Assembly (NCBI GenBank): GCA_039208735.1
Contig: JBCCQY010000018.1
Location: 1-64,000, forward strand
DNA length: 64,000 nucleotides
Source: Myxococcota bacterium
Lineage (GTDB): Bacteria; Myxococcota_A; UBA796; GCA-2862545
Reading direction: 5' to 3'
In this document: positions 2 through 55,277 of the stretch, in pieces
Position numbering within the stretch: position 1 is the stretch's first letter
Layout of the letters: the number at the start of each line of letters is the position of its first letter
Translations under genes and position numbers: made by a program
The notes under the pieces: generated by a model
Seen by the model: only the letters and a program-made list of their open reading frames with translations
Databases searched by the model: none
Told to the model about the DNA's origin: nothing

Positions 2-112
2 GAGCACGTGGTGACCGGTGACTTCGACGGCGACGGTCGTGCAGACCTCGCCTGGAACCAGACCGCCGCCAGCAATCGCGTGTTTGTGGGCTTGGCTTCC
101 GACGCGCTCTAA
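2..112 (+). CDS. 3' end of an FG-GAP/VCBS-repeat protein (runs off the window start)
   Basis: Frame +2 reads EHVVTGDFDGDGRADLAWNQTAASNRVFVGLASDAL*. GDFDGDGRADL is the FG-GAP/VCBS Ca-binding motif. The TAA at 110-112 overlaps the convergent gene's stop. Confidence 0.75.
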   Translation, partial: EHVVTGDFDGDGRADLAWNQTAASNRVFVGLASDAL

Positions 113-3100
113 GGCCCCACCCGCTCGAAGATCTCGGACGCGACCCGGGTCACCTCGTGGTCGGGTCCGAGGACGCGTTGAATCACGGGTAGGTGCTCCT
201 GGAGAAGCTCCCGGGCTTCTGTTACCTCGCCGAGCGCTTCGTACACCTCGGCGAGGATGCCGACCGACCACAGCGTCGACACGTGCTCCGCGCCCAGGCG
301 CTCGGTGCGTAGCTCGAGCAGCCAGCGGGCCCGATCGAGCGCCTCGTGCAAACGCCCGGTCTGGAGATCGAGCTGTGCGCGACTGCCGTGGAAGGCCAGC
401 GTGTCCGGATGCTCAGGACCCATGAGATCCCGACTCACACGGAGCAGATGATCACTGTGGGCGCGTGCCTCGTCGCTTCGACCGTCGCCCAGCAGCGCGG
501 CGACCAGCCGAGCCCGAGTCGACAGGGTAAGCAGCGTATCCGGGCCCATGGTCTCTCCAATGTCGTCGAGCAGCGACAGGATGCCCGCCGGGTCGGCGGC
601 CGGGTCTACGACGAAGAGGTTGCTGCGAGCCAGGAGCGTCCTGAAGTCGCGCTCTCCGAGTTCCGCGCGATAGGTCTCGACGACCCCTCGAGCCAAGGCC
701 ACCGCTGCCTCCGGTTCGCCCATCTTCGACAAGAGGAGGCTCAATGAGTTCTCGGCCCGTCGAGTATGCAGGTGGGAGGGTCCAAGCGAGCCGCGCAGCT
801 CCTCGATGAGCTCGGTGAGGGTTCGGCGGCTTTCGGCAAGCTCCCCGGCTATCTGCTGCGAAGCCCCCAAGCGAAAGCGTGCGGCTCGGGTCGTTGCATG
901 GTTGTCCCCGTGGCATGCTCGCGAGGCCGCTACGAACCGCCTCGCAAGGCCGAGGGTCTCTTGAATCCGACCTCGACGCTCGAGGATGCTGTTGAGGACA
1001 GGGAACACCTCGAGCGTTGCGGGATGCGCCTCGCCGAGCTTCGACGCCCGAACCCTCAAGACGTCCTTGGCAATGACCTCGGCCTCTCCGAATCGTTCGG
1101 CTTTGCAAAGGACCATGCTCGCTCCGAGCCGCAGCGGTCCCCTGCCCTCGTCGCGCCGCAGACCCAGCACCTCGGCGTGAGGTGCAAGAGCGAGTTGCGC
1201 CGCGTCCGGCCTCTCGCCTCGGCCCACGACCAACGCATGGACCAACTCAGCCTCGAGCAGGTCGGCGACGTGTTCGGCGCGCTCGGGAGCGGTCTCGGTC
1301 GCGAGCACGGTTCGGGCCACCACGGGATGGATGGCCAGCGACGCGGGTTGCCCTTCCTCGATGGGGGATTCCATCCGTAGCATCGAACCGCCGACCGCCT
1401 GCTCGATCGCCCGGATACGCGCGCCGGGATCGGTCACGTCCAGTCCCTCAAGCACGGCATCGACGAGCGAACGCGGAATGGGGGTGTTGGGCGCGAGCCG
1501 CGCCATGGCCCGAAGAAGGTCGCGGGTCGCCGGCTCTTGGCGTTCGGCTCCAGCCGCGAACGTGGCGCCGATGGCGCGGGTGTGACCGGTGGGAAGGGCG
1601 CCCGCGAGCTGCTCGGCGAGATCGTCCAGCAACGCGCCGGGGGCTTGTAGGCGCTCATGCACGCCCGCGATGCCCAGGTGGGGCACCAGCGAACCCGCGA
1701 CCGCAACCGCCAACGCGTGGTCCCCGAGGGTGTCGAGCAGCTCCTCGCCCTGCCTCGCGGCGAGGTCGTCCCGAGGCGCATGACCTCGCCAGAGCAGGTG
1801 GCGTGAGGCCGGCCGTTCGAGTTCGCGGAGTTCCACATCGTGGGCCCAGTCGACGCGCCCTCGGGTCGTGACGAGGGTGCGTCCCGTCGGCCACGGACAC
1901 TGCCACGTCTCCGCCAAACCCGCCGCCTCCACGTCATCGACCACCCACAACGCCGGCTTGGATCCCCCAGCCCCGGCGACCGCCTCCCGCAGCCCACGCT
2001 CGTGGGTCTCGATATCAGCTCCCGCAGCGCGAGGAGGCACCGGGTAACCTCGAGCCAGTAGCCAGCTCACGAGCTGGGCTCCGAGAGGCTGCCGACCACT
2101 TAGGAAGTGCACGCCTCCGGGGTAGAACGGTTCGAACCGTCTTGCGTACTCCCGGGCGAGCATCGTCTTGCCTACCCCGCCCATGCCGCGCACCGCCACG
2201 TCGTGCCCTTCCTGCAGGGCATCATGCACCGCCGAGAGCACGGTCCGTCGGCCCACGAATCCGGTCGAAGACACCGGCTCGACCGGGTCTGCAACCGTCG
2301 CGTCGACTGAGGTCTCGGTCGGCGTCGCCTCCGTGGTCTCCCGAAGGGTCAGCCCCCAGCGTGCGTCACGCCCCTGCTGGGCGGGAATTGCCGTCACCAC
2401 GACCTGGGCGAACTGCGCAAGCGACGTCGTGCCGTGGCTGCGGCCCGAGGCGCGGGCGGCATCGCGGACTTCGCGAGCGGCGGGTCGGGTGGCCGGGTCC
2501 CAATGGATCCAGGTCCCGATCGAGGCTGCGACGTCCGAGGGCACGCCCCGCCCCATCATTGCATCCACGACCTGGCCCACTCGCGCGGCGTGATCGGCGG
2601 GATCGGCTCCCGCAGGGCCGAGCGCCGTTCCCGTCAGCGCCTCCACGACCACCGCACCGAGCGCGTAGATGTCACCGGCCGCAGTGTCCTGGTGGCGCAT
2701 CCGCTCGGGCGCCATGTAGGCGTGCGTGCCGACGGGAACTGGCCCGGTGCGCGACTCCCGGCTCTCGAGGCTCGCCCTGGCGATCCCGAAGTCGAGTACC
2801 CGCACCTCTCCCGACGGCGTGAGACGCAGGTTCGCGGGCTTGAGGTCGCGGTGTAGCAACCCCACGGGCTCGGCCGCGTGGAGCGCGGCGGCGACCTCCT
2901 CAACCATCTCGAGCGCAGGCCCGAGCGGCAGCGGACCGTGACGCTTTAGCACCTCGGCCAGGTCCGCACCCGGCACATACTCCATCACCAGGGCCCAGCG
3001 TCCATCGAGGCGGGTCAGGCCCTCGGTGTGCACCACCGCGCGGTGGTGGAGACGACCGAGCACCCGAGCCTCGTCACGGAGGCGCCCCAGCACCGACTCG

Positions 3101-3279
3101 TCGCCCTCGAGATGGGGGTGGAGCATCTTGACCGCCACGGGCTTAACGAAGCCGGCCACCCCACGCGCTTCGGCACGATAGACCACGCCAAAGCTCCCGA
3201 TTCCGAGAACTTCTTGCAAGCGGTAGGTGCGCAGACGGTCGTCCACGAGCAACTCCCGCTCCTGCGTAACGTGGCGCAC
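109..3279 (-). CDS. Ser/Thr kinase - NB-ARC/STAND ATPase - TPR fusion protein
   Basis: Kinase motifs GIGSFGVV, AVK, HRDLKPAN, DFG, APE. Walker A GMGGVGKT and Walker B LWVVDD. C-terminal LGxxHPxTL-type (kinesin-light-chain-like) TPRs. Confidence 0.92.
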   Translation of the reverse strand: MRHVTQERELLVDDRLRTYRLQEVLGIGSFGVVYRAEARGVAGFVKPVAVKMLHPHLEGDESVLGRLRDEARVLGRLHHRAVVHTEGLTRLDGRWALVMEYVPGADLAEVLKRHGPLPLGPALEMVEEVAAALHAAEPVGLLHRDLKPANLRLTPSGEVRVLDFGIARASLESRESRTGPVPVGTHAYMAPERMRHQDTAAGDIYALGAVVVEALTGTALGPAGADPADHAARVGQVVDAMMGRGVPSDVAASIGTWIHWDPATRPAAREVRDAARASGRSHGTTSLAQFAQVVVTAIPAQQGRDARWGLTLRETTEATPTETSVDATVADPVEPVSSTGFVGRRTVLSAVHDALQEGHDVAVRGMGGVGKTMLAREYARRFEPFYPGGVHFLSGRQPLGAQLVSWLLARGYPVPPRAAGADIETHERGLREAVAGAGGSKPALWVVDDVEAAGLAETWQCPWPTGRTLVTTRGRVDWAHDVELRELERPASRHLLWRGHAPRDDLAARQGEELLDTLGDHALAVAVAGSLVPHLGIAGVHERLQAPGALLDDLAEQLAGALPTGHTRAIGATFAAGAERQEPATRDLLRAMARLAPNTPIPRSLVDAVLEGLDVTDPGARIRAIEQAVGGSMLRMESPIEEGQPASLAIHPVVARTVLATETAPERAEHVADLLEAELVHALVVGRGERPDAAQLALAPHAEVLGLRRDEGRGPLRLGASMVLCKAERFGEAEVIAKDVLRVRASKLGEAHPATLEVFPVLNSILERRGRIQETLGLARRFVAASRACHGDNHATTRAARFRLGASQQIAGELAESRRTLTELIEELRGSLGPSHLHTRRAENSLSLLLSKMGEPEAAVALARGVVETYRAELGERDFRTLLARSNLFVVDPAADPAGILSLLDDIGETMGPDTLLTLSTRARLVAALLGDGRSDEARAHSDHLLRVSRDLMGPEHPDTLAFHGSRAQLDLQTGRLHEALDRARWLLELRTERLGAEHVSTLWSVGILAEVYEALGEVTEARELLQEHLPVIQRVLGPDHEVTRVASEIFERVGP

Positions 3280-3282
3280 CGA

Positions 3283-4188
3283 TCACCCGCGTATGATCTC
3301 GACGTTGACGGTTCCGAGCCGCAGCTGTCGGGCCGATGGACGCCGCTGAACGAGTTCGACCGCATCCGTCACTCCAGCCTCCGAGAGCTGGGTCCGTGCT
3401 CGGTGCACGTGGTTGTTGAGCAGCGCGTCACGGACCCGGAGCTGACGCACGAGCACGTCTTGGTACACCCAGCCCTGCGCAGACAACTCCACACCGCTCC
3501 CGTGGTCGTCGAGTCGGGCCCGGGCCAGGGTGAGCAGAAGGTAGTGGTAGGCACGTGACCCGAGGTCCAAGGTGCTCGACCCGTCCACGAGAGCCAGCCT
3601 CACATACTCCTCGTCGTGGCTCACCGTGAAGCGGAGGCAGGTGTCAGCGAGCTGACGGACCTCCCCCGCGCTGGTGCGGGGCAGAACCTCGGGAAGCCGA
3701 AGCGTGCACGACGTGGGGCCGACCTCGATCGTCTGCCCATCGAGCACCGGAACTCGTCCCTGGTCCGATTCCGACACCCACCGCCCCGCGGAGTCCTGGT
3801 ACAGGGTGACCAGAGGCTCCTCGACACTGGGAAGGGCGAGCATCCCGCTGCGGCCCGTCGCTCGCGACCCGTCCGGCCAAACGGCCATGGGTTCGGGCGC
3901 ACCCGCATCGTCGAGAACCCAAGAATCCGAGGGACCCCCACACGACAGGATCGCGCCGGGAGGCAGCACCGCCACCTCACCGACGCCGAGTCGTCGGCCG
4001 CCAACAAACGTGCCGTTTCGCGAACCCAGGTCACGAACCTCCCAGCGTGTGGTCCAAAGGAGCACGGCGTGCTCGCCCGAAACGCGAGGACTGGAGAGCA
4101 GAAGGTCGCACCGCGCAGCCCGACCGACCACGTGACGGGCCATCAGCCGGACCCTTCGTCCCGAAGCCTGGTGGTAGAGCGTTCCCAC
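3283..4188 (-). CDS. FHA domain protein with C-terminal HTH-like domain
   Basis: FHA signature VGR...VSGEHA...DLGSRNGT. C-terminal LLLTLARAR...GW...LNNHVHRARTQL region. Ends 3 nt before the kinase-STAND gene. Confidence 0.88.
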   Translation of the reverse strand: MGTLYHQASGRRVRLMARHVVGRAARCDLLLSSPRVSGEHAVLLWTTRWEVRDLGSRNGTFVGGRRLGVGEVAVLPPGAILSCGGPSDSWVLDDAGAPEPMAVWPDGSRATGRSGMLALPSVEEPLVTLYQDSAGRWVSESDQGRVPVLDGQTIEVGPTSCTLRLPEVLPRTSAGEVRQLADTCLRFTVSHDEEYVRLALVDGSSTLDLGSRAYHYLLLTLARARLDDHGSGVELSAQGWVYQDVLVRQLRVRDALLNNHVHRARTQLSEAGVTDAVELVQRRPSARQLRLGTVNVEIIRG

Positions 4189-4308
4189 GAGATCAACATA
4201 TCGATGCTCGGGCGGGCTCGAACAGCGTCGCGAGCGAAGTCTGATCCAGCCAACGTTGGTGCCCCCCGAATCGACAGCCTGCGAGCGCAGGCCCCTCCAG
4301 CTGAAACA

Positions 4309-4596
4309 TCAATCGCAGCACAGCAGGGGAAGTTCGCTGGCGCAATCCGTCTGTGTCGGGCGGGACTCCGTGTCGGCCCAGCGGCTTCCCTCACGACTCG
4401 CTTCCGTCGTCGTGTATCCGTTGCAGTCTGCGGCAACGCTGCCGTCGAGAGACGGCTGGTAAGTGCCCGAGGCGTACCATCCAGACGGCATCACTGTGCC
4501 CTCTGTGGCGGACATCACGACCTCGGGCGCCAGACAGACATGCGCATCGGCTCCGCACGTCGCGACCGCTGCACACAGGGGGACCGCTCCGCAGGT
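4309..4596 (-). pseudogene. 3' remnant of a Cys-rich extracellular domain gene (DUF1554-like C-terminus)
   Basis: Open frame CAAVATCGADAHVCLAPEV...GWY...DCNGYTT...DCASELPLLCCD*. No signal peptide or credible start; bounded upstream by an in-frame TGA at 4597-4599. Confidence 0.5.
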
Positions 4597-5052
4597 TCAC
4601 TCCGTTTCGAGAGCCCGGACCTCGGCAAGCCGCCGCCTAGCATAGGTATCGTCCCAACACACGGCTGCTTCCCAAGCTGCCTTGGCCTGGGAGGCAACGT
4701 CGAAGGCGATGGGGTCGAGACCGGCGGCGTTGTGGGGCAGGTCCAAATCGAGGACGGAAACGTCCACGTGGGCCTCGTCCCAATCGACGAGCCCGACCCG
4801 GTCACCGTGGATCAGGATGTTGCGGGGATTGGGGTCACCATGCACCACGCTCGTCTCTCGATCCGCCAATCTTGCCCACGCAGCTCGACAACGCCGCACG
4901 CCCTCGTCCGGCATCGCGGTGAGGTCGATCTTCGTACCGGTGTCGGCCCGAAGAAGATCGGTCGACGACCTCCAACCGGGCCTCACTCCGCAAGCCCTCA
5001 TGCTTGACCCCACTCGGTGCCACGAGGGCATCGTAGCGCCTTCGAAGCACAA
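4597..5052 (-). pseudogene. 5'-truncated aminoglycoside-phosphotransferase (APH)-like kinase
   Basis: Brenner-type motif VVHGDPNPRNI and GLVDWDEA. Only about 125 aa (from RPGWRSSTDLL) are recognisable; the ATP-binding N-lobe is absent. Confidence 0.7.
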
Positions 5053-5272
5053 CCCGGCCCCGACGAATGAGTACGAAACCGGGAGGGTTCGCCCACCACA
5101 GGTCGAGCAGGAGACTCAGATTCACAGTCTGCTGGCCGAAACCTCGGTTTCGTCGTCGAACCCGTAAGGCCCAGCGTCGCATCCGTCTGTGCAGCATTCC
5201 AAACGCACGTCGCAACGCACTCCGCGGGCGAGATTGCCGGACATCCGAGAACCAGCGATATACCTGTCAGAA

Positions 5273-6862
5273 ATGCAACCTACCGTCGAAGACCTCATCA
5301 CACGGGTTCGCGAGGCGACGACCGCGGCGGAGCAGGCCCGATGGCTTGAGGCGGCGGCGCGGAAAGCCGACGACAGCTACGGCCTGCGAGCTCTCGTGCG
5401 CACGCTGGTCGAACTGCGTTCCGAAGATCGGGAGACGATCGCAAGAGCAGTGGATCGGCTGGTCCTAGCCGCTGGCGCGAACGCGGACAGTTGGGGGTTG
5501 CGAGAGGCAGCCCAGGTCCGAGCCGGGCTGCTCGCGGACCCTGCCGGAGCGCTTGAGGCGTTGCAGGTCGCCGAGGCCCACATCCATCAGCAACACAGCG
5601 CCACCTGGGGTTGGACCCAGCTCGCGGAAGCCTACGCGGAGCTGGGCGAGACGGACGAGGTGCGGCGCTGCATGGAGGAAGCCCGTGCGGCAGCCACGGA
5701 CCACCACGACACCTACACTCTCGTCACCCAGTGGGCGGCGCTGCTTGGAGACCCCAAAAAGGCCGAAGCGATGCTCGCCGAGGCCGAGTCCGAGCTGCCC
5801 TTGACCGCAAGTGTGGCCTGGTCGCTCGCCAACGCCTGGCGTACGCTCGGTCTACCCGCACGCGCCGATCGATTGCTCGGAGCATGCCTCGATCGGGTCG
5901 AGGACACCCAGAGCGCGCTCACCCTAGTCGCAGCTCGTCAGAGCCACCGCGACCCCCAGGGGATGGCCCAGGCCCTCACCCGCGCGGAAGCACTGGCAGA
6001 CTCGGCCGAGGACTGGTTTCATGTCGCCGAGGCCCTCGCCGATCAAAACGCCCCGAACACCTCCGTTCGCCGTGCCCTAGAGGCCGCGGTGGAAGCTGAA
6101 GGCGCGTCCGATTGGCTCGAGGCCGTCGCCACAGGCTACCGACGCTGGTTGTCGGACGAGGCAGCGGCCGACGCGCTGGGCATCAGAGGCCTCCGCCCAG
6201 GTGCGCTCGGCGATCCATCCGACGGCTTTAGGGGCCTCGAGTGGTCCGCCGAGGGGTTGTTCGACTGGGTGCGCGCCGTAGTACCACCCTCGTCGCTTCA
6301 ACAAATCGCACGAGCTGACTATGGCTCCGATGCCGACAAACACCTGGTAGCCTTGAAGGAGATCTGCCAGAGCGGCCTGCTTCCAAGGACGCTGCCGTGG
6401 CACCCGCGCGAGGTGCTCGCGCTGACCCGGTGGTCTCAAGGGGAGCGCGTCGACCACCACGCTCGTGCGCTATCGACCACGATCCTTTCGCTGTACGTCG
6501 AAGAGACCGAACTCTCGGACACCCTGTCGTACCTCGTGGAGAGCTGCCTGCAGCTCGGGCCTAAGGCGTCAGAGCACGCGGACCGGTTCCTCGTCTGGGC
6601 GTGTGCCTGCACCGCCAACTCAGAATTCGCTGACAACGCCGCAGCCCCGATTGCCCTTGCGCTCCTACGGTTGGTCCGCAATCCGTCGGACCCGCTGCTC
6701 CCCGAGCTGACGTCCGCGCTCTCGCAAGATGTTGTCGACGAGATGCTTCGGTTCTGCACAGCGGCGAAGCACTGGTCAGAACTCGTAGAGGCCTTGGCGG
6801 GCCCTCATCTTCCCCACCACGAGGTCGCGAAGTCGCTTGCAGCCTGGTTCGGCATCGCCTAG
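5273..6862 (+). CDS. Hypothetical alpha-helical repeat protein
   Basis: Long ORF with Ala/Glu/Arg-rich TPR-like repeats, then a distinct C-terminal domain (IARADYG...WHPREVLALTRW). Start placed at ATG 5273. Confidence 0.75.
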   Translation: MQPTVEDLITRVREATTAAEQARWLEAAARKADDSYGLRALVRTLVELRSEDRETIARAVDRLVLAAGANADSWGLREAAQVRAGLLADPAGALEALQVAEAHIHQQHSATWGWTQLAEAYAELGETDEVRRCMEEARAAATDHHDTYTLVTQWAALLGDPKKAEAMLAEAESELPLTASVAWSLANAWRTLGLPARADRLLGACLDRVEDTQSALTLVAARQSHRDPQGMAQALTRAEALADSAEDWFHVAEALADQNAPNTSVRRALEAAVEAEGASDWLEAVATGYRRWLSDEAAADALGIRGLRPGALGDPSDGFRGLEWSAEGLFDWVRAVVPPSSLQQIARADYGSDADKHLVALKEICQSGLLPRTLPWHPREVLALTRWSQGERVDHHARALSTTILSLYVEETELSDTLSYLVESCLQLGPKASEHADRFLVWACACTANSEFADNAAAPIALALLRLVRNPSDPLLPELTSALSQDVVDEMLRFCTAAKHWSELVEALAGPHLPHHEVAKSLAAWFGIA

Positions 6863-6956
6863 CGGCGACCGGAAGTGCGCAGCCATTTTGCACACCCATC
6901 AGGCCCTTGCCAGCCGTCACTGCATTGACTATGCATGAGCCATGTTGACCTGTACC

Positions 6957-7229
6957 CCATGCCTGGCTTTGGAGGGCGCACCGACTGCGGTGCCGTTCAA
7001 GCAGGCATGGTGCGTCTCGCCATAGGCGGGGCCCTCAGGTTTACCGTGCGTCATCTACGCGCCGAATCGCCCTAACTCCACTCTCCTCTGGATGATGAGC
7101 GAGTTGGAACCTGTGCTCCGCCCTGGCTCTGTGTGCAGTTCCAAGCTGCCACAGAACGCCCGGCCCTGGGCCGGCAGGGGCGTGGTGCCATTGCCGGCCT
7201 TGGGCTTCACCCCACGGGACCATTCCCGT
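6957..7229 (+). promoter_or_regulatory. Structured leader upstream of the EF-G paralogue
   Basis: Four successive inverted repeats at about 6957-7010, 7104-7144, 7169-7199 and 7214-7229. The last abuts the GGAGG RBS. Confidence 0.4.
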
Positions 7230-7239
7230 TGGAGGTTTC

Positions 7240-9219
7240 ATGTCCATCGACATTCGCAACATCGGCATTTCGGCTCACGTCGACGCAGGCAAGACCACGC
7301 TCGCCGAGCGCATCTTGTTCTATGCGGGTCGCATTCGCACGATCCGCGACGTCAAGGGCGGCGACGGGGGGGCCCACATGGACCACGATCCGCTTGAAAC
7401 CGATATGGGCATTACGATCGACGCCGCGGCGACCACCGTCCGGTGGCGTGACACCGATGTGCATGTCGTCGACACCCCCGGACACGTGGATTTCACCGTG
7501 GAAGTGGAGCGTGCGCTCCGCGTGCTCGACGGTGCGATTCTCGTGCTCTCGGCCGTCGCAGGGGTGCAGGCCCAGACGCACACGGTGGGACGCCAGATGG
7601 ACCGGTACGACGTTCCCTGCGTCGCCTTCATCAACAAGTGCGACTTGGCCGGAGCCGACCCTGCCTTGGTGGTGGAACAGATGAGGACAGCGCTGGACCT
7701 ACCCGCGGTCCTCGTGCAATGGCCCCTCGGACTCGAGCACGACCATCGAGGAATCATCGACCTGCTCACGGAGGAGTCCGTCACGTTTGAGGGTTCGGAA
7801 AACGAAAGGGTGACTCGGGCGCGGACCGAACTCTCCCCAGGAGCTCGGGCGGCGCGCGAGGCGTTACTCGAAGCGGTCGCGGAGCATGACGAAGACCTGT
7901 TGGAAGCCCTTCTTGACGGCGGTCCTTTGGACCTCGAACGGGTTCGTGCGGTGCTGGCTCATGCGACGCACCTTCGCCAGCTCGTGCCGGTGTTCGTGGG
8001 GGCAGCCCGCCAGAACCTTGGTGTGCAGCCTTTGCTGGATGGGGTGGTGGACTACCTGCCGCGGCCTGAGCAGCGCCGAGTGGTGGCCACCGACCCCGAG
8101 ACCGAAGCCCTTCACGAGGTGCGTGGAGATGTCGATGGGGCCGTACTCGCCTATGCGTTCAAGCTTCAGGAGACCGACTTTGGCTCCCTGACCTGGCTTC
8201 GTGTGTACCGCGGGATTCTACGCCCCGGGGTGGCGCTCGTCGACGTCCGTACGGGTCGTAAGCAACGACCTCGTCGGTTGTCCCGACTCGACGCAGGGGA
8301 GACCTTGCCTGTTGCCGAGGCCCGCCCTGGCGAAATCGTAGCGGTGTCAGGGCTGGACGTGGCGTCGGGCACGACCTTGTCGGACCCTGACCATCGGCTC
8401 GTCATTGGGGAGTTGCACGTGCCCGAACCGGTCGTGCAACGCGCGCTACGACTCGTCGATGGTGGGCCGGATCGACTTGGGCGAGGCCTGTCGAGGATGG
8501 TCCGAGAAGACCCCACGCTGCGGGTGGTGACGAATGGTGAAACAGGTGAGACCGTGCTTCACGGCATGGGCGAACTTCATCTCGAGGTCATCGCCCACCG
8601 TCTGCGCGAGCGGTTCGGAGTCCAGGTGGTCCTGGGTGAACCCTCGGTGGCCGAGCGTCAGGCGCTCACCAAGGCGACCTCGTTCGACTACGTCTTCAAG
8701 CGCCAATCGGGCGGTCCAGGCCTGTACGCGCGTGTCGTAGGCACGGTGGAGCCGGCTACGTCGTTCGAGTTCGACTGGACGGTGGTTGGCGGGGCGATTC
8801 CAACGGAGTTCCGCGCTGCAGTCGCGCGGGGATTCCGAACCGCGCTGGCTGAAGCAGAACCTGAAGTGGTTGGCGCTCATGTCGTGATCACGGACGGCAG
8901 CACCCATCCCAACGACAGCTCGGACCGCGCCTTTGAACTCGCCGCTCGTATGGCATTCCGTGAGGTCCTTGCGAAGGCCGAGCCAAACCGGCTCGAACCT
9001 TGGATGCGAGTGGTTGCGGAAGCGCCCGACGAGTGGCAGGGGGCACTCATTCAGTCCCTGACGAAGCGAAGGGGCCGAGTGCTCGAGGCCGAGCCGGGTC
9101 GCGTTGAGGCGGAAGTGCCACTGTCCCGAATGTTCGGCTACGCAACGGCGCTTCGATCGGCAACCTCGGGCGCGGGAACGTTCTCAATGGTGTTCGATCG
9201 CTTCGATACCGCCGTGTGA
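7240..9219 (+). CDS. fusA: Elongation factor G paralogue (EF-G2 type)
   Basis: RNIGISAHVDAGKTT, GITI, DTPGHVDF, NKCD, GMGELHLE and EVPLSRMFGYATALRSATSG. GGAGG RBS. Located outside a str operon. Confidence 0.93.
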   Translation: MSIDIRNIGISAHVDAGKTTLAERILFYAGRIRTIRDVKGGDGGAHMDHDPLETDMGITIDAAATTVRWRDTDVHVVDTPGHVDFTVEVERALRVLDGAILVLSAVAGVQAQTHTVGRQMDRYDVPCVAFINKCDLAGADPALVVEQMRTALDLPAVLVQWPLGLEHDHRGIIDLLTEESVTFEGSENERVTRARTELSPGARAAREALLEAVAEHDEDLLEALLDGGPLDLERVRAVLAHATHLRQLVPVFVGAARQNLGVQPLLDGVVDYLPRPEQRRVVATDPETEALHEVRGDVDGAVLAYAFKLQETDFGSLTWLRVYRGILRPGVALVDVRTGRKQRPRRLSRLDAGETLPVAEARPGEIVAVSGLDVASGTTLSDPDHRLVIGELHVPEPVVQRALRLVDGGPDRLGRGLSRMVREDPTLRVVTNGETGETVLHGMGELHLEVIAHRLRERFGVQVVLGEPSVAERQALTKATSFDYVFKRQSGGPGLYARVVGTVEPATSFEFDWTVVGGAIPTEFRAAVARGFRTALAEAEPEVVGAHVVITDGSTHPNDSSDRAFELAARMAFREVLAKAEPNRLEPWMRVVAEAPDEWQGALIQSLTKRRGRVLEAEPGRVEAEVPLSRMFGYATALRSATSGAGTFSMVFDRFDTAV

Positions 9220-9222
9220 ATC

Positions 9223-9259
9223 GACGAGGAGGCCCGTCCGAACCGACGGCCTCCTCGTC
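9223..9259. terminator. Hairpin downstream of fusA, probable terminator between convergent genes
   Basis: gacgaggaggc(c)cgtc-cgaacc-gacggcctcctcgtc, a 15-bp stem with one bulge starting 4 nt after the stop. Confidence 0.65.
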
Positions 9260-9345
9260 CATTTCGTGCAGGTCTGTGCGTGTCGGATCGGAGCCGACAC
9301 GAGCGTTGGTGGAGTCAACGCCAAGCCGTACGATGAAGTGACAGC

Positions 9346-10224
9346 TCAAAGGCTTTGAATCTGTGCTCGAAGGCCCAGTCGAAGCAGACTCGAGCCTCGC
9401 ATTCCCCGAACCTCGACGGCAAGTCGGTCGTGGGGCAGGCCCGCCTCGCGAAGCTGGGCCCGCGCGCGATGGGTGTAGAGGTGAAGCTGGCTCGAAGACA
9501 GGCTCAAACGGCGCCGCAGCATGGCGGCTTCGAGCCAGCCATCGTCGGGGGAGGCAAGGCGTGCGTCGGCTAACTCCACGAGCAGATGCGTATGCCGTCG
9601 CACCGTCAACTCTCGTTCGGCACCCCCCACCTGCAGCGCGCAACGGTAGATGCGATCACCGTCGGCGCTCACCTCCAGAATCAGCTGCTCGTCGTGGTCC
9701 ACTTCCGCTTCGGTATGGGAGGAGCCGCCACGAACGCTGGTAGGAAGCACCACGGTCCACGCCGCCTCGCCCGACTCGAGCAGGTCCCCCCCTTCGATCC
9801 AATGTCCACCTTCGGCGTGCCGCCAGCGCTCACCATCGCGTTCCAGCACATGCAAGCCATCGGGGCTGACCCACCGGGAACCGAGAACCGGTATGGCCCC
9901 GCCATCCAGGTCGATCAGCACAAGTCCAGGTGGGGAAAGATCAGCAACCTCCCAGACCTGTTCCGACGAGCCGAACCGAAGCCGCATGCCCACTTCGAGC
10001 GAATGCCGCGTTCCTTCTGCCAAAGGGGACGCGCCATCGAACGTGCCATTGGTCGTCTTTTGGGGTCGAATCCACCATTGGTCCTCGTCGAAGAAGAAGG
10101 TGGCGTGATGACCCGAGACACGTCGATCGAGGAGTTGAATGTCGCAATGGGGATAGCGACCCACCAACGTCCGAGCCCCAAGGTTGATCCATCGCCCGTC
10201 GCGATGTCGTTGAAGAAGTGCCAC
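9346..10224 (-). CDS. FHA domain protein with C-terminal HTH-like domain (paralogue of 3283-4188)
   Basis: VGRYPHCDI...VSGHHA...TTNGT. C-terminal LLVELADAR...GW...LHLYTHRARAQLREAG. The GTG start overlaps the upstream TAG by 1 nt. Confidence 0.87.
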   Translation of the reverse strand: MALLQRHRDGRWINLGARTLVGRYPHCDIQLLDRRVSGHHATFFFDEDQWWIRPQKTTNGTFDGASPLAEGTRHSLEVGMRLRFGSSEQVWEVADLSPPGLVLIDLDGGAIPVLGSRWVSPDGLHVLERDGERWRHAEGGHWIEGGDLLESGEAAWTVVLPTSVRGGSSHTEAEVDHDEQLILEVSADGDRIYRCALQVGGAERELTVRRHTHLLVELADARLASPDDGWLEAAMLRRRLSLSSSQLHLYTHRARAQLREAGLPHDRLAVEVRGMRGSSLLRLGLRAQIQSL

Positions 10225-13200
10225 TAGCCAGGCTCCGGAACCGCTAGCGCCTGGCGCGCCAACGCAAGAAGCACCCCCAGCTCGCCGTGCTCGGGTACCA
10301 CGAGTCCCTCCGCCAGACGTTCAGCTTCCGAAAGGGCATTCGCCGCGTCGTTTCTCGACCACCGCGCCTGATGTCGTGCGCGGTCCGCCCAGATCTTGGC
10401 GAGTTCAGCCGGCGTCTCGGCCTTCATAAGCTGCTCAATCGCCTGGTCCCAGTACCGACTCGCCTCGCGGCTACGGCCTTGGTTGGCGGCAACGTTCCCA
10501 AGCTGGGCGAGGGCCACCGCTTCGAACAGGGCGTTGCGCGACTCGCGAAGCGCGGGCAGTGCGTCAAGGAGCACCGCTTTTGCGGCCTCAAATCGCTTTG
10601 CGTGGACCAACATCACGCCTAGGTGAACCTGGCATTCGGCAACGTAATGAATGGCTCCACCCGCCTCAAGCGCCGCTGATGCGGTCTTGAACGACCCTTC
10701 CGCTTCTCCGAATGCCCCCACCATGCCCTGGATTCGGCCCAGATTGATAAGGGCAATCGCTGCATGCATGCGCCCGCCGTTCGTTCGGTGCAACGCAAGG
10801 GCCTGTCGATGCAGGTCGAATGCATCTGCCCACTGGCCACGCTCTTCGTGAAGGATCCCAAGCCCACCCAGCAAAATAGCATATCCTTGAGGAAATCCCT
10901 GATTTCGAGTTTGTTTCATTCCTTCGCGGTAATGGTGCTCGGCATCTTCGAGACGTCCTTGATAAATCGCCAGATTCGCAAGACCCGTGTGAATGCGCAC
11001 CAGCAACGGAGAGGGATCGAAGCGTTCGTGTAGGGCCAATGCCTGTTCGAGGTGTTGACGAGCCCGGTCCGGGCGTTCCGTCTTCAGGTACAGCACGCCG
11101 AGGGTATTGTGTACATTCGCTTGCCGGAAGGCCCCCGCATGGTTCCGCCTAGGATCGAGGCAGGCGTGAAGGAAGTCCTGGGCCGCCTCAAAATCGCCGG
11201 TGTACGTCGCGATCTGACCCAAGGTCAACCGCGCGGAAGCATGAACCGGATCGTCGGGCGTCTCCTTCGCCACTTCGCGGGCATACATCGCGGCTTTCCT
11301 CGCGTCATCGAACAGGCCAAGGTCGTTCAGCAACGTCGAAAGTCGCAGATAAGATGTGGCCTTGCCAATCGCATTCGACGTCGCGGACCAGTGCTCGATG
11401 GCCGCCTCAAAGGCCCGACGCGACTCCGCGGTCTGGCCCAGCTGTCGATGATTTCGGGCAAGCTCATCAAGCGCCAGGGCCTGATCTTCGTCGGAGAGTT
11501 TAGGAATCGCAACCAGGCGCTGGGCAAGCTCCAGGTTTCGCTCGGCTGTCCCGATCCGACTCCGAACGAGCGTTGCCGCTCGCAGCGTCGAAAGGGCTAC
11601 GACGGGGTCCTGACGCCTCAGCGCCCTGTCACAAGCTACCGTGATATTCGGGATTTCGCGAGTAAGAATCGCCAGCGCATCAACGTGACTGGCGGTGGCC
11701 GACGGTCGAATCGACTCCGACAGTGCTGCGTAATAGGCACCGTGGCGTTGTTCCGTATTGCTGCGCAACCCTGATGAATCCAGAGCCTGAGCCGCATACT
11801 CCTGAACCGTCAAGAGCAAACGGAACCGGCCGTCGCGCTCCACCTGGACGAGCGAATGCGACACCAACCGATCCATGACGTCCAACGTCAGCGAGGATGA
11901 ATCGAGCACCGACTCGACCGCCTCCAGATCAAAACTCGGTTCAAACACTGACAGTTGGAGGAGCGCGGCCCGTTCTTCAGCCGTGAGGAGCTGTACACTC
12001 CAATCGAGGGTCGCCCGTAGCGTGGCTTGGCGAGAGGGCCGGGGACTCATCGCCTTGAGCAGGCGAAACCGGTCGGTCAGTCGGGCCAGGATGGCCTTGA
12101 GTGGAAGCAACCGGACCCGCGCCGCAGCGAACTCGATGGCAAGGGGGATGCCATCCAACAAACGAAGTACCGCGTGTAGTGTCGAAGTCTGGGACGCGGC
12201 GTTGAAGGCGGGCTGCACGGCCAGGGCGCGGGCCTCGAACAACGCCTTTGCCTCGGGCTCCGAAAGGGGTTCAAGGGGCAATTGCTGCTCGCCCACCAAA
12301 CCCAGCGGGACGCGACTCGTCACCAAAAAGCGTGCGTCAGGTGCCGCCGCAGTCCAAACGTCGAGGAGTTCAACGAGAATATCCGCCACTTGCTCGGCAT
12401 TATCAAGGGCAATGAGGCAGGGACCGCGTTGCTGAATGACAAACGCAAGCCGCTTCGCATCAAGACTCCGTTGCGCGTTGGCCCCCAGCCCTTGGGCCAT
12501 CGCAGCCAGTACGTCCGACCGGTTCGTCGACTCGGCGAGGTCGCACCACACGGGGGTGCGCCCACCCACATCGCGATTTCGGATAAAATTTACGATAAAC
12601 CTTGTTTTCCCGATTCCTCCAAGCCCGGTTACCGTCACCACTCGGCCGCGATGCAGCGCAGTCCACAGAAGGTCGAAGTCCGAGTCTCGACCGATGAAGA
12701 CGTCCCGCTCTGCCGGCAGGAGCGCCGAGGCAGGGTGTGGCTGCGTGGATTCTGCTTCGGTAGTGTCCAGCGCAACTTCAAACCGACGCCGGACCAGCTC
12801 CCCAAGGGCGGTCTGGAAGCCCAGTGGCTCCAGGGCGGGCTGCCCAAGCTGGGCCCGAAGCGCCAACGCAGATGCGAACCGCTGATCCGGATCTCGCTTC
12901 AACAGTCGCAACAGAATCGTCCGAAACCGCTCCGGCACCTTCGAATCCATTCGATCAGCGTGGGGTTTGCGACCCAACAGCATCTCGTGGAGCAACACCC
13001 CGAGCGACCAAAGGTCCGCTCGGGCATCGACCGATCCCGCGTCCCTTCGCTGCTCGGGAGCCGCGTAGGCATGCGTGCCCAGAAAGTCCCCCGTGCGAGT
13101 CGCATCTGAACTCACAAACTGCGCTACCCCAAAATCCGTGAGCCTCGGAACAAGGCTCCCGGTATGCGGGTCGAGCAAGACGTTGGAGGGCTTGACGTCG

Positions 13201-13580
13201 CGGTGAACCACACCTGCCGCATGCGCGGCGGCCACCCCCTCCACAATGCCAACGAATAAGGCCAACGCCTCCTCTTCCGTGAGTTGGCGAATCTCGAGAA
13301 GTTCCTTGAGGGAGCACCCTCGGACTTGCGGCATGAGGAGCGCGGGTTGTCCGTCGACCGACAACACGGCTTGAACCGGCACCACATATCGGGAGACGAT
13401 GCGTTGTTGGACTTCACCTTCGAGGCGCACCCGAGCGGCGAGCGACGGCCGATGGATGACCTTGAGCGCATGCTCGGTCCCGAGGGTTACGTGTCGCACC
13501 GCATAAACCGTCGAGGCCCCTCCACGACCGAGCGGCCGAAGGACCCTGAAGGCACCGATTTGTCGTCCCAACGCGAGCAC
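10224..13580 (-). CDS. Ser/Thr kinase - STAND ATPase - TPR fusion protein
   Basis: GRGGASTV, ALK, HRDVKPSN, DFG, APE. Walker A GLGGIGKT, Walker B IALDNAE, and LDGIPLAIE. Many C-terminal TPRs. Confidence 0.92.
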   Translation of the reverse strand: MLALGRQIGAFRVLRPLGRGGASTVYAVRHVTLGTEHALKVIHRPSLAARVRLEGEVQQRIVSRYVVPVQAVLSVDGQPALLMPQVRGCSLKELLEIRQLTEEEALALFVGIVEGVAAAHAAGVVHRDVKPSNVLLDPHTGSLVPRLTDFGVAQFVSSDATRTGDFLGTHAYAAPEQRRDAGSVDARADLWSLGVLLHEMLLGRKPHADRMDSKVPERFRTILLRLLKRDPDQRFASALALRAQLGQPALEPLGFQTALGELVRRRFEVALDTTEAESTQPHPASALLPAERDVFIGRDSDFDLLWTALHRGRVVTVTGLGGIGKTRFIVNFIRNRDVGGRTPVWCDLAESTNRSDVLAAMAQGLGANAQRSLDAKRLAFVIQQRGPCLIALDNAEQVADILVELLDVWTAAAPDARFLVTSRVPLGLVGEQQLPLEPLSEPEAKALFEARALAVQPAFNAASQTSTLHAVLRLLDGIPLAIEFAAARVRLLPLKAILARLTDRFRLLKAMSPRPSRQATLRATLDWSVQLLTAEERAALLQLSVFEPSFDLEAVESVLDSSSLTLDVMDRLVSHSLVQVERDGRFRLLLTVQEYAAQALDSSGLRSNTEQRHGAYYAALSESIRPSATASHVDALAILTREIPNITVACDRALRRQDPVVALSTLRAATLVRSRIGTAERNLELAQRLVAIPKLSDEDQALALDELARNHRQLGQTAESRRAFEAAIEHWSATSNAIGKATSYLRLSTLLNDLGLFDDARKAAMYAREVAKETPDDPVHASARLTLGQIATYTGDFEAAQDFLHACLDPRRNHAGAFRQANVHNTLGVLYLKTERPDRARQHLEQALALHERFDPSPLLVRIHTGLANLAIYQGRLEDAEHHYREGMKQTRNQGFPQGYAILLGGLGILHEERGQWADAFDLHRQALALHRTNGGRMHAAIALINLGRIQGMVGAFGEAEGSFKTASAALEAGGAIHYVAECQVHLGVMLVHAKRFEAAKAVLLDALPALRESRNALFEAVALAQLGNVAANQGRSREASRYWDQAIEQLMKAETPAELAKIWADRARHQARWSRNDAANALSEAERLAEGLVVPEHGELGVLLALARQALAVPEPG

Positions 13581-20094: not shown

Positions 20095-22773
20095 ATGCCT
20101 GCTTATCAATCACCAAACGATGCCTTTGTCGGACGCGAAGCTGAACTTCAGGCCCTTGATGAGGCGGTGGAGTTGCAAACTCGACTGGTCGCGATCGTTG
20201 GGATGGGAGGCATCGGCAAGACACGACTCGTCTACGAATCCCTGCGAACCAGCGTGAATGTTCGAGTGGTAGAACTTGCCGCTTGTGCAACAGAGGAGGG
20301 ACTGCTGGCTGCGGTAGCGGCGGTTCTGAATCCACGCGGTTCGACAACAGGCTTCGATCTGGTGGCGACGATGGAGCGCCTCGGGACGTTCACCCTGGTG
20401 CTCGACGCCGTTGAGAGTGTCTTGGACCACCTGTTGTCGCCCCTCGAGCAATGGTTGCGGGACGCCCCCAATGTGCGGTTTGTACTGACATCGCGCCTGC
20501 CGATTCACATTCGTGGGAGCCACACCCTCCTTTTGGGGCCGTTGTTGCCTGACGACTCGTTCGAACTCCTCGTCCGTCGGGCAAAGGAAAGCGATATCCG
20601 GTTCGATCCCACCTCCCAAGCCGATGAACTCAGAGGCGTGGTCGCTCGCCTGGACGGCATTCCCCTCGCAATCGAGCTTGCATCTGCGCGTTTGCACGTG
20701 TTGTCGCCCCGACAGCTCTTGAAACGGCTTCATGACCGGCTTTCCATCCTTCGTACCGACCGCAGCGACGTGTCCCCTCGACACACCGGCCTAAGGGCCA
20801 CGCTGGACGATGCGTGGAACACCCTGAGTCCGACCGATCGCACATCGCTGTCGGCCTTGTCGATTTTCACTCATCCCTTCGAGGTGTCGGCAGCCACCAC
20901 CGTACTTGGACTCGAAGATGACGCCGCGCTCGATTGCATCCAGCGCTTGGTCGGCCGGGGATTTATCCACGTTTCGCCAAACGATCCGGAGCGCTATCTT
21001 CGAATGGTGGACGTGTTGCGCGAGTACGCCGCGCATGAGTTGCCGGAAGCTCGTAGTCTAGAGGTTCAGCGCCGTCATGCGCAGCACTACAGGGATCAGT
21101 TCGCGGAGCTTCTTACGGCGCGGGGCATGAATCAACTGCTTGCGCAGCGGCTCTCGTTCGACAATCTCGACCAAACGATACCCCACCTCGACGCAATGTT
21201 GGACCGACCGGGCCTCGATTCCGACCTACGCCGAGACGTAGGAATCGTGCTGGCCGCCCTGCTCATTACCCACAGACCGGTCACGAGCCTTCATCGTGCG
21301 CTTCAGGTTGCCCGAGAGGAGGCCATTCAGACGTCTCGACGCCGGCTTGCGATCGTGGTCTTCCTCGAATCCATCTCGAGGGACTTTTTGGACACGAACG
21401 TTGCAGAGCTCGACGATGTGATCGATGCCTTCCGGTTCATGGAAAGCATCGGCGATGAGCCAGGTTGGGCCGCACTATTGGCCGGAGACATTAGCGCAAG
21501 AGTACGGTTTTCAGACTTCGAATCTGCACTTCAATGGGCGGACACCGCCCAGGTTCATGCCGACGCCTCTGGGAATGCCGACATCAGGTTCTACGTCAAG
21601 AACCTTCAGGCGTCTTATCGCTTGTTCGAGCAGTCGCTGCCTGAATCGTATCGTATGCTGAGCAAGCTTCTCGACGATCCGTCGATGAGCCGCGATGCAG
21701 CGTTCAACTGGTTGATGAATCGCGCATGGTTGTTGTACGAGCTTGGCACACTCGATGAGGCGATCGCGGATATCGAACGCGCGTTGGACATCGGGTCAGA
21801 CCGGACCGAGCCCATCGCCCGCGTTGGTGCCTTGACCCGTGCCGCAATCCTCTACTTTGCCGCGGGTCGTCGAGAACTCGCCTACGCAAGCTTGGGGGAA
21901 GCCTGCTCCCTGGGCGACCGCTACGGCGTTCGAGATGATGGTGCCTACGGCCGAGTTCACGTTCGAGGACTATTCTCGCTGGCTGAAGGGCGAGATTCCG
22001 ACGCTGCGGCGGCCATGGAATTGAGCGAACCGGTGGGAACCCCTCGCTCGACCCGGGGGCTGGTGGCGCTGTTCTCGGGCGATTTGGGAGCTGCTCATGC
22101 CCATCTGAAGGCGGCCCTACAGACCGCACGGGCATCGACAGGTCAAGGTCTGCGTACGGCGTTCTACGCCATTGCGCTTGGGCGCCTTGGCCAATCACAA
22201 GAAGCTTTGCAAACGATGGAGCAAGCCTGGTCGCAAACCACGCGTTGGCAGAGTCGTCGCGTCGACGCCGTTCTCGATGTGCTGGACTTGGCGCTTACGC
22301 TCCATCAGGGTCGTCCAAACACCATCTCCGAGGCCTGGGCACGGCTCAATGCACAACAGCGTTCAACCGAACCCCAATTTCCGATGTTGTTGATCGCAAC
22401 TCGCCTTTTGCGAGCGGCACTAGAACACGTGGGTTCACCGATCGTCGTCCACGTGGGGCCTGATGTCGCATGGGTTCAAGTCAACGATGCTAAGCCGATG
22501 GAACTCACGCGCCGACCGGTCTGGCGATCCCTTCTGCATAGGCTCGTCGAGGAATATCGCGCGGCGCCCGGGAGACCGATTCCGGCCCAAACGATGTTGG
22601 ACGCAGCATGGCCTGCGGATCGCTCCCGACGGGAAACGCTTGAAAACCGACTGTGGTCGGCATTGTCGAAAATGCGGCGAGCAGGCTTGGGGGAGGTCAT
22701 TCGGCGTGTTGAAGGCGGGTATCTGATTCCTGAGGCGGTTCTCGTCTTCTCTCGTGAAACGCCACTGGGCTAA
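20095..22773 (+). CDS. STAND ATPase - TPR - C-terminal winged-HTH regulator
   Basis: FVGREAEL, GMGGIGKT, LVLDAVE and LDGIPLAIEL. Helical repeats. C-terminal LDAAWP...NRLWSALSKMRRAGL...GGYLI resembles an OmpR-type wHTH. Confidence 0.88.
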   Translation: MPAYQSPNDAFVGREAELQALDEAVELQTRLVAIVGMGGIGKTRLVYESLRTSVNVRVVELAACATEEGLLAAVAAVLNPRGSTTGFDLVATMERLGTFTLVLDAVESVLDHLLSPLEQWLRDAPNVRFVLTSRLPIHIRGSHTLLLGPLLPDDSFELLVRRAKESDIRFDPTSQADELRGVVARLDGIPLAIELASARLHVLSPRQLLKRLHDRLSILRTDRSDVSPRHTGLRATLDDAWNTLSPTDRTSLSALSIFTHPFEVSAATTVLGLEDDAALDCIQRLVGRGFIHVSPNDPERYLRMVDVLREYAAHELPEARSLEVQRRHAQHYRDQFAELLTARGMNQLLAQRLSFDNLDQTIPHLDAMLDRPGLDSDLRRDVGIVLAALLITHRPVTSLHRALQVAREEAIQTSRRRLAIVVFLESISRDFLDTNVAELDDVIDAFRFMESIGDEPGWAALLAGDISARVRFSDFESALQWADTAQVHADASGNADIRFYVKNLQASYRLFEQSLPESYRMLSKLLDDPSMSRDAAFNWLMNRAWLLYELGTLDEAIADIERALDIGSDRTEPIARVGALTRAAILYFAAGRRELAYASLGEACSLGDRYGVRDDGAYGRVHVRGLFSLAEGRDSDAAAAMELSEPVGTPRSTRGLVALFSGDLGAAHAHLKAALQTARASTGQGLRTAFYAIALGRLGQSQEALQTMEQAWSQTTRWQSRRVDAVLDVLDLALTLHQGRPNTISEAWARLNAQQRSTEPQFPMLLIATRLLRAALEHVGSPIVVHVGPDVAWVQVNDAKPMELTRRPVWRSLLHRLVEEYRAAPGRPIPAQTMLDAAWPADRSRRETLENRLWSALSKMRRAGLGEVIRRVEGGYLIPEAVLVFSRETPLG

Positions 22774-22775
22774 AG

Positions 22776-24545: not shown

Positions 24546-24693
24546 CCTGAGGCGGTGGTGGCGCGGCCTTTCCGAGATGGAGGCTTATTCCTTGCCCGTT
24601 CTAGCGTGGTAAGGTCGCGCGTAGAGAAGCAAGGTCGACCAAGGTCCATGGAATCCCGCCCCGAGCTAGTCACACGGCCGGGCTGGAGGATCC

Positions 24694-48170: not shown

Positions 48171-48205
48171 CCGGCGCCTCCCCCTTCCGTTGTGATGATC
48201 CTGAG

Positions 48206-48242
48206 AGATTCGGTTTGCCCATCCCGCCGTAGATTCGGTTTG
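48206..48242. promoter_or_regulatory. 12-bp direct repeat AGATTCGGTTTG, two copies
   Basis: Exact copies at 48206-48217 and 48231-48242 in the divergent intergenic region. Confidence 0.55.
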
Positions 48243-48360
48243 TTCAACGGCCCTTCGGGCGGCGCTTTCGTTGCTCTTCTGATTGCCTGCGACGCACTCG
48301 GCAACCAAATGTTGAACGTTGAAGCCCCCTCAAGACCTGGTACCAACAAAGGAACAAAGC

Positions 48361-54206: not shown

Positions 54207-55277
54207 GTGAAGATGTCGCCCGAGGAAAAGGGCAAGCGGCTGAAGCAGTATGTGCGGTCTGAGCAGTTGGTGGACGACCTCGACTCCAGCGAGGCCGACC
54301 TCGCAGGGGCCTACCTCATCAAAGCCAACCTCTTCGGAGCCTGGTTGACCGAAGCCAATCTGCAGGGGGCTCAACTCGATTGGTCCAACCTCAATGGGGC
54401 CGACCTGACCAGAGCCAACCTCCAAGGAGCCAACCTCACCGGCGCCGACCTTCGCGATGCCTGCCTCAAAGAGGCCAACCTGCGGAAAGCCAATCTCCAA
54501 GCGGCTCAACTCGATGGGGCAAACCTCGAGGAGGCCGACCTCACAGGCGCCCAACTCCGTTCGGCAAGCCTGATAAACCTCCAGGTCATCCCACCGTCCA
54601 TCGTCGATGCCGAAGACCTCACGGGTGCGTCGCCAAACTGGCAGACGGTCGCGCGCATGTTGACCCTGCGAGACCCTGACCACCTGCTGTGCCGCACGGG
54701 CATGCCGAGTGTCGCCGCGACCTACCTCGTCGACGCTCTGCGTTCGATCGATGCGGCTGACCTGTTCACGATGCTGCAATCGGTATTCTTGTCGTTTGGA
54801 ACGCCCGATCAGGCGTTTGCGGAACGGCTCCGCGCCGACCTGACGGAAAACGGGGTGAAAACATGGTTCTACCCGGAAGACGCTGAGCCCGGCCGGCGTC
54901 ATCATCGGCACATCCACAACAAGATCTGGGAGTACGACCGGTTGGTGCTCTGCTGCTCTCGGGATTCAATCCTGCGATCCGGGGTCCTCCACGAGGTGGA
55001 GGAAGTCTTGCAGCGAGAACAACAAGAAGGCAGCTCGAACCGACTTATCCCCATCTTCTTCGATGAGGACCTCTTCGAAACCGGGGCGTCGCCCCCTGAA
55101 TGGTGGCATCCAGAGCGGCGTCACATCTACCGCCAACTCCAAGGCCGAGTGTGTGCTCGGTTCACGACCGAACCCAACTCCCCCCAGTGGAACCAGGCCC
55201 TAAGGAAGCTTCTGAAGGTGCTTCACAAGCCGCCCCACGTCGAGGGTTCAACAGGGTCCGAATCGGACTTAGTCTAG
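54207..55277 (+). CDS. Pentapeptide-repeat - TIR domain protein
   Basis: About 17 A(N/D)LxG-type repeats, then TIR motifs VFLSF...DQAFAERL...GVKTW...SRDS...VLHEV...LIPI. Confidence 0.9.
   Translation: MKMSPEEKGKRLKQYVRSEQLVDDLDSSEADLAGAYLIKANLFGAWLTEANLQGAQLDWSNLNGADLTRANLQGANLTGADLRDACLKEANLRKANLQAAQLDGANLEEADLTGAQLRSASLINLQVIPPSIVDAEDLTGASPNWQTVARMLTLRDPDHLLCRTGMPSVAATYLVDALRSIDAADLFTMLQSVFLSFGTPDQAFAERLRADLTENGVKTWFYPEDAEPGRRHHRHIHNKIWEYDRLVLCCSRDSILRSGVLHEVEEVLQREQQEGSSNRLIPIFFDEDLFETGASPPEWWHPERRHIYRQLQGRVCARFTTEPNSPQWNQALRKLLKVLHKPPHVEGSTGSESDLV

Follow-up and report, generated by a model that had tools for sequence, protein, structure and literature searches.

We describe a large, unannotated family of proteins that join a forkhead-associated (FHA) domain to a predicted winged helix-turn-helix (wHTH) and are paired with Hanks-type Ser/Thr kinases of many sensor types. 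Two examples with STAND-TPR sensors lie in the window, our term for the 64,000-nucleotide stretch of a Myxococcota bacterium analyzed here (assembly GCA_039208735.1, contig JBCCQY010000018.1, our C18, positions 1-64000; the genome comprises 9.4 Mb in 288 contigs). Each pair probably constitutes a two-component-like module: phosphorylation of a linker threonine would switch the predicted OmpR-type transcription factor, and the STAND-TPR body would be one interchangeable input. The family and its kinases likely represent an undescribed route from kinase to gene that extends beyond NLR-like sensors.

All four genes of the two pairs are encoded on the minus strand. F1 (3283..4188; 301 aa), a predicted regulator ordered FHA, FHA-like domain, Thr linker and OmpR-type wHTH, lies 3 nt upstream of K1 (109..3279; 1056 aa), which combines a Hanks Ser/Thr kinase domain (aa 19-271), a Thr-rich linker, a STAND NTPase and TPR_10/TPR_12 repeats. 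The second pair has the opposite gene order: K2 (10224..13580; 1118 aa), with a Hanks kinase, a STAND NTPase and TPR_12/MalT-like repeats, is followed by F2 (9346..10224; 292 aa), a second predicted FHA-wHTH regulator that overlaps the K2 stop by 1 nt (TAG/GTG). A preliminary description of this DNA had reported this arrangement, and its coordinates were correct; its further claims that F1 and F2 are paralogues and that the TPR types of K1 and K2 differ also held, with 32% identity between F1 and F2 from end to end, the quoted C-terminal motif common to both, and distinct Pfam repeat matches in the kinases. Recent tandem duplication of a single module was ruled out, as F1 and F2 share only 32% identity and stand far apart on the family tree, and the STAND types differ.

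A profile of the C-terminal domain retrieved 2,216 clusters (50% identity) at E ≤ 0.001 and 1,884 at E ≤ 1e-10. Matches occurred in 28 of 41 near genomes (at a threshold that lets in some distant copies), 23 of 151 genomes across the phylum and 4 of 61 in another class; the distribution is patchy and often multi-copy, with up to 10 per genome. Names of homologues are mostly from Myxococcota, including Sorangium, Polyangiaceae, Kofleriaceae and Nannocystaceae. The genome under study carries six close copies and five more that are related by hhalign, belonging to subfamilies B (97.6% to the family) and E (85-97%). For subfamilies C and D, hhalign showed no such relation (values of about 1%). These look-alike FHA proteins of ~300 aa (L121-L127 and L131, on contigs C231, C87, C7, C240, C105, C59, C1 and C21) possess a Thr-bearing linker and a possible wHTH, and several sit beside kinase-FGE genes. 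A divergent family member on the same contig as the window (L129:4233-5156; C18:74229-75155) carries a changed FHA motif and lacks a neighbouring kinase. With F1 alone as query, the related-locus search gave one locus. Fusion of kinase and partner was also considered: the search for longer proteins gave one match, which was an over-extended start, and a kinase domain was found in 0 of 144 representatives, both of which are weak negatives. No description of an FHA-wHTH family was found in the literature, subscription papers and supplements being outside the scope of the search. Passages of PMC7159879, PMC8195603, 10.64898/2026.10.19.760177, 10.1101/2025.01.12.632604, PMC6213207 and PMC13581612 concern FHA, FGS or STAND modules, not this family; such neighbourhoods might appear in the source data of the papers PMC7159879, PMC8195603 and PMC13581612.

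To relate the family to kinases, 86 loci were scored: the two in the window, L001, four other copies from this genome, 59 from near genomes (the best full-length matches outside this genome plus one split copy, with truncated L096 dropped and weaker matches omitted) and 20 from new genomes across the phylum (three further matches left out). At 42 of these loci a Hanks kinase is no more than 500 bp away, and at 58 no more than 3.5 kb; for 20,000 random intervals of this genome, the corresponding shares are 2.6% and 12%. These counts are descriptive because loci from kin are not independent, yet they tie the homologues to Hanks kinases across genomes. Within this genome, which has 184 kinase open reading frames (ORFs), five of the six close copies are kinase-adjacent, whereas a hand tally found a kinase within 500 bp of only 1 of 18 unrelated FHA ORFs (27 other FHA ORFs minus eight look-alikes and one kinase fusion). 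In metagenomes (80 loci in 54 clusters), 14 clusters had full flanks, with a kinase within 3.5 kb in 10 and within 500 bp in 4; among all 54 clusters, 11 had an adjacent kinase, three of them of the STAND type.

The preliminary description had proposed scoring co-location with kinase-STAND genes specifically, and a STAND-specific link was not borne out. Sensors of the 42 adjacent kinases, labelled with custom hidden Markov models and checked with Pfam on 44 kinases, comprise FGE-sulfatase domains (19), other or membrane tails (12), STAND-TPR (6, K1 and K2 included) and FG-GAP (5). Counted from the kinase side, a family member or look-alike lies within 1.5 kb of 2 of 22 kinase-STAND genes, 6 of 13 kinase-FGE genes and 5 of 149 other kinases. 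On a quick IQ-TREE phylogeny of 85 rows, STAND partners are scattered: their 8 rows require 7 changes, where shuffling gave a mean of 7.8 and 108 of 500 shuffles needed no more. Linkage specific to STAND genes is thus ruled out by their minority share, their scatter on the tree and the few kinase-STAND genes that have a partner. Pairing with kinases far exceeds chance, but pairing with STAND genes does not.

The same tree suggests how sensors vary. F2 and the C34 copy of this genome are sisters (support 99 by SH-aLRT), and the C34 kinase carries a tail of membrane helices plus FGE where K2 has STAND-TPR; when 37 partner kinases are ranked, those of F2 and C34 are mutually first and second nearest. 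A further STAND/FGE sister pair is supported at 95, and nearest neighbours of partner and kinase agree in 13 of 38 adjacent pairs versus ~3 by chance. From the F2/C34 case and the concordant pairs, we conclude that recent pairs travel together with their sensors swapped; deep pairings of kinase and partner may have been reshuffled.

Structural prediction was undertaken to define the anatomy of the partners. An AlphaFold2 model of F1 from a 122-row alignment, with a predicted local distance difference test score (pLDDT) of 95, comprises an FHA domain (aa 1-96), a second all-beta domain (aa 97-165), a linker, and a C-terminal domain (aa 180-301) made of a sheet, three helices and a hairpin wing. 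The FHA domain (3901..4188, minus strand) is assigned by Pfam, fold and conservation. It exceeds the Pfam cut-off in F1 (60 bits) and F2 (54.8 bits), its best fold match is the FHA domain of EmbR (Z 17.2), and its G-R, S-x-x-H and N-G-T motifs are intact. As had been supposed for a phosphothreonine (pThr) reader, the pThr-binding motifs G-R, S-x-x-H and N-G are kept in both F1 and F2, and 99-101 of the 102 full-length proteins among 144 new representatives retain pocket residues G22, R23, S37, H40 and N58. Beyond FHA, only an overlapping YscD model scored above chance in a Pfam scan of F1 and F2, and neither has a Pfam BTAD match; the long helices of the F1 model are three, all within the C-terminal wHTH. 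The central all-beta domain (3694..3900, minus strand), delimited by the secondary structure of the model, may be a degenerate second FHA without pThr-pocket motifs. An ESM Atlas structure search matched it to FHA domains (TM 0.65-0.69), whereas hhalign against the first FHA gave only 3.5%; we treat this assignment as a lead because the pocket motifs are missing, the hhalign value is low and the likeness to FHA comes solely from the Atlas search.

Between the central domain and the wHTH, Thr172 of F1 (3673..3675, minus strand) is near-invariant in an otherwise variable linker and is a candidate phospho-acceptor that the preliminary description did not mention. It is kept in 120 of 122 rows of alignment A1, in 98 of 102 full-length representatives (no adjacent linker column exceeds 33 of 102) and at 75 of 85 genome loci, where several of the others are off by a few columns. 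The corresponding candidate in F2, Thr171, is four residues farther from the conserved Pro than in F1. A lone conserved Thr in a variable linker, combined with an intact FHA domain, has the look of FHA-regulated phospho-switches, and by that analogy this residue would be phosphorylated. Regulation of an FHA domain by a linker pThr has a precedent in the tandem-FHA protein Rv1747 (PMC8339232), and intramolecular FHA-pThr binding is on record (PMC4601284).

The C-terminal domain (3286..3651, minus strand; aa 180-301), with its invariant G-W and R-x-R, is predicted to adopt the OmpR/PhoB fold. The preliminary description had anticipated a wHTH here and had proposed fold prediction as a check, and its expectation agrees with the outcome. 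Modelled alone, the domain reached a pLDDT of 97.7, and the top 21 rows among 48,161 chains were all OmpR/PhoB-type DNA-binding domains, led by BaeR (Z 10.2, root-mean-square deviation 2.6, 94 aligned), GlnR (Z 9.7) and VicR (Z 9.1). Residues G239, W240, R263 and R265 are kept in 102 of 102 full-length representatives, and the invariant Arg residues sit on the predicted recognition helix and wing. The OmpR/PhoB assignment is supported by fold (Z 8-10) and not by a Pfam sequence model: Pfam has no model for this domain, and Trans_reg_C is unmatched in F1 and F2, matches 1 of 66 family members at E 0.04, and matches a related subfamily-B copy at E 1e-4. Sequence matches of the domain in the PDB were three, all to the SaeR recognition helix and weak (E 0.26-0.33). 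In a single example, P0126, this wHTH forms the C-terminal output of a REC-PAS-PAS protein.

Judged by sequence, K1 and K2 both have the motifs of active Hanks-type kinases, with the catalytic Lys, HRDxKxxN, DFG and APE all kept and Thr-rich segments following the kinase domain. Both also possess Walker A and B motifs (aa 365 and aa 444 in K1), a GxP-like motif and a C-terminal repeat sensor, the hallmarks of STAND NTPases. The label NB-ARC given to them earlier stands only in part: the Walker motifs are intact, but NB-ARC scores of 14.2 and 17.5 bits fall below the Pfam cut-off of 23.5, and the STAND regions give weak NB-ARC, nSTAND6 and AAA_22 matches. The two STAND domains belong to different subfamilies. 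The STAND-TPR part of K1 most resembles the NCBIfam model FxSxx_TPR (202 bits, cut-off 300), and that of K2 resembles the HaaT and AfsR models, below cut-off. The 85 K2-type STAND ORFs of this genome divide into 46 with Trans_reg_C, 12 with a kinase, 2 with both and 25 with neither (58 of 83 places were used, with short response regulators and second hits within one frame omitted). The nearest kinase paralogue of K2 (61% identity; C274, L118:141-4586) is a chimeric 1482-aa ORF that strings together a kinase, a STAND fragment, Trans_reg_C, a second STAND and TPR in one chain. Because K2-type STANDs often carry Trans_reg_C, and given the C274 chimera, K2-F2 may represent a wHTH-STAND-TPR regulator that gave up its DNA-binding output to another gene, with a kinase relay in between. 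Trans_reg_C-STAND-TPR regulators are greatly expanded genome-wide, with Trans_reg_C in cis in 48 of the 85 K2-type ORFs.

Overall, these features suggest a mechanism that likely resembles PknH-EmbR, with FHA and phospho-Thr in place of receiver and phospho-Asp. Ligand at the C-terminal sensor would bring kinase domains together for autophosphorylation on Thr; sensing would involve nucleotide exchange and oligomerisation in the STAND-TPR versions, and FGE-sulfatase, FG-GAP or membrane tails elsewhere. The partner FHA would dock on the kinase pThr, and the kinase would then phosphorylate the linker Thr (T172 in F1). FHA would next bind this pThr and transcription would change; binding is more probably in trans, which would dimerise the wHTH at tandem DNA sites, with binding in cis as the alternative.

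Like PknH/EmbR of M. tuberculosis, each pair joins a Hanks kinase to a factor combining an OmpR-type DNA-binding domain with FHA, and for EmbR, FHA-dependent Thr phosphorylation is reported to raise promoter binding (PMC4601284). EmbR, however, is a SARP ordered wHTH-BTAD-FHA, whereas the partners are ordered FHA, FHA-like domain, Thr linker and wHTH without BTAD; its wHTH is a middling match to that of F1 (Z 6.4), and, unlike PknH/EmbR, the family has expanded into paralogous pairs whose sensors vary. OmpR/PhoB response regulators share the C-terminal wHTH fold, an N-terminal input domain and a gene beside a sensor kinase, but the partners have FHA instead of a receiver and no His kinase, so that FHA and the linker Thr would act as substitutes. 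In PknS/EcfK of Xanthomonas citri, a Hanks kinase likewise has its cognate regulator, which is switched on by phosphorylation of Thr residues, a conserved linker Thr among them; its output is an extracytoplasmic function sigma factor, and the abstract names no FHA (PMC13147305). In PknF/Rv1747, which has tandem FHA domains and shares an operon with its kinase, FHA is regulated by pThr in its own unstructured segment (PMC8339232), as it is, going by PDB titles, in the GarA/OdhI and DgcB switches. The outputs of these proteins are transport, metabolism or cyclic di-GMP, unlike the DNA binding predicted here. Finally, the STAND-TPR body resembles that of STAND regulators (AfsR, MalT and GutR) and antiviral STANDs (Avs and bacterial NACHT), but here a kinase takes the N-terminal effector position, with a wHTH that would come from a separate gene.

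Several results weigh against the proposed module. No kinase lies within 3.5 kb at 28 of the 86 loci, 17 of which have full flanks, and a clade of 11 rows is kinase-less in 9, while keeping the FHA motifs and linker Thr. Partner and kinase show no global co-evolution (Mantel rho 0.04, equalled or exceeded in 329 of 1000 shuffles), nor do adjacent pairs alone (rho 0.025; 406 of 1000), and nearest-neighbour concordance is confined to the 13 of 38 pairs noted above. The scored loci come from related genomes, and the background from one genome only. Regarding the wHTH, Foldseek gave no match at E ≤ 0.001 for the model, the fold scores of Z 8-10 are only moderate and fold does not show function, and the domain is roughly charge-neutral overall. 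No shared DNA motif was found across 86 upstream regions. In the operator search, repeats were in excess at spacings of 9, 10, 12 and 21 bp alone, with none at 11 bp, and the expectation-maximization motifs were degenerate; both signals are best explained by kinase coding sequence, which fills the short divergent gaps.

The orphan loci and the absent mirror-tree signal would suit a network in which FHA-wHTH factors are read out by many of the 184 kinases, with adjacency arising from co-regulation or co-mobility. Such a network would also accommodate the varied gene order and orientation (22 adjacent kinases divergent, 18 co-oriented and 2 convergent), and EmbR is phosphorylated by three kinases in vitro according to PMC4601284. 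We nonetheless consider it unlikely, in view of the tight coupling in the window (3-nt gap and 1-nt overlap), the related kinases kept by close relatives and the rarity of kinases beside unrelated FHA genes. A wHTH that serves as a protein- or RNA-polymerase-binding adaptor, with an output other than sequence-specific DNA binding, appears least credible. Although Trans_reg_C is unmatched in F1 and F2, no operator emerged, and the wHTHs of ORC2 (Z 7.4) and ScpB (Z 6.4) appear lower in the fold list, the top fold matches are all OmpR-type DNA-binding domains, the predicted recognition helix and wing carry the invariant Arg residues, and the subfamily-B copy does match Trans_reg_C.

The preliminary description proposed an NLR-like two-component system, of which the predicted wHTH, the intact FHA and the tie to kinases were upheld while NLR or STAND specificity was not (6 of 42, scattered on the tree). 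Taken as immunity, with STAND-TPR sensing an invader and the kinase and FHA-wHTH launching a defence programme, this idea strikes us as quite doubtful. Both window kinases have intact STAND motifs and differing TPR arrays, kinase-STAND partners recur (four other adjacent loci and 3 of 54 metagenome clusters), and FGE/FGS domains and STAND-FGS proteins are described as sensors of conflict systems (PMC7159879, PMC8195603). However, STAND is a minority input, most K2-type STANDs in this genome are fusions with Trans_reg_C, and transcriptional regulators without an immune role occur within STAND clades (PMC13581612). The PADLOC matches listed (2023 library; best 25 of 33 per kinase) comprise the kinase domain and one generic TPR model, with no Avs-type model among them, and F1 and F2 had none. 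The genes between the two modules encode an APH fragment, a helical-repeat protein and an EF-G paralogue.

The two-component-like module would have consequences beyond this locus. Hanks kinases far outnumber known outputs in such bacteria, and a dedicated reader family with a single predicted phospho-site would tie many of these kinases into gene control. The module would moreover be a case of STAND-TPR sensors acting on transcription via a kinase relay instead of a fused DNA-binding domain. Named homologues occur in cultured Sorangium, and the module is therefore testable outside this genome. More tentatively, we may be looking at a widespread, undescribed Ser/Thr-based two-component class of ~1,900 FHA-wHTH 'threonine response regulators' with cognate kinases and cassette-swapped sensors. 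In its STAND versions, NLR-like oligomerisation would trigger the kinase, the regulator would oligomerise through pThr and FHA, and a change in transcription, possibly with an immune role, would follow. In animals, relays that run from a receptor-kinase to an FHA adaptor, such as ALPK1-TIFA, offer a parallel.

The mostly kinase-less clade (L005, L038, L041-L045, L047 and L048) has a G-T-A-T-like linker and partly conserved neighbours, ABC transporter genes among them; in this genome its member is divergent from a miaB-like gene. The genes separating the two modules, including EF-G at 7240-9219, were not counted as parts. Elsewhere in the window, 20095-26388 encodes a STAND-TPR protein whose C-terminal tail looks HTH-like by eye and, after it, two kinases that begin with an unannotated helical domain and are paralogues of both kinases adjoining the C36 family copy, and 45384-48308 encodes one Trans_reg_C-STAND-TPR regulator. 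By eye, the window also contains an IS630-like transposase (48884-49969), a pentapeptide-repeat plus TIR-like protein (54207-55277) and hypF/hypB-like genes (58897-63793).

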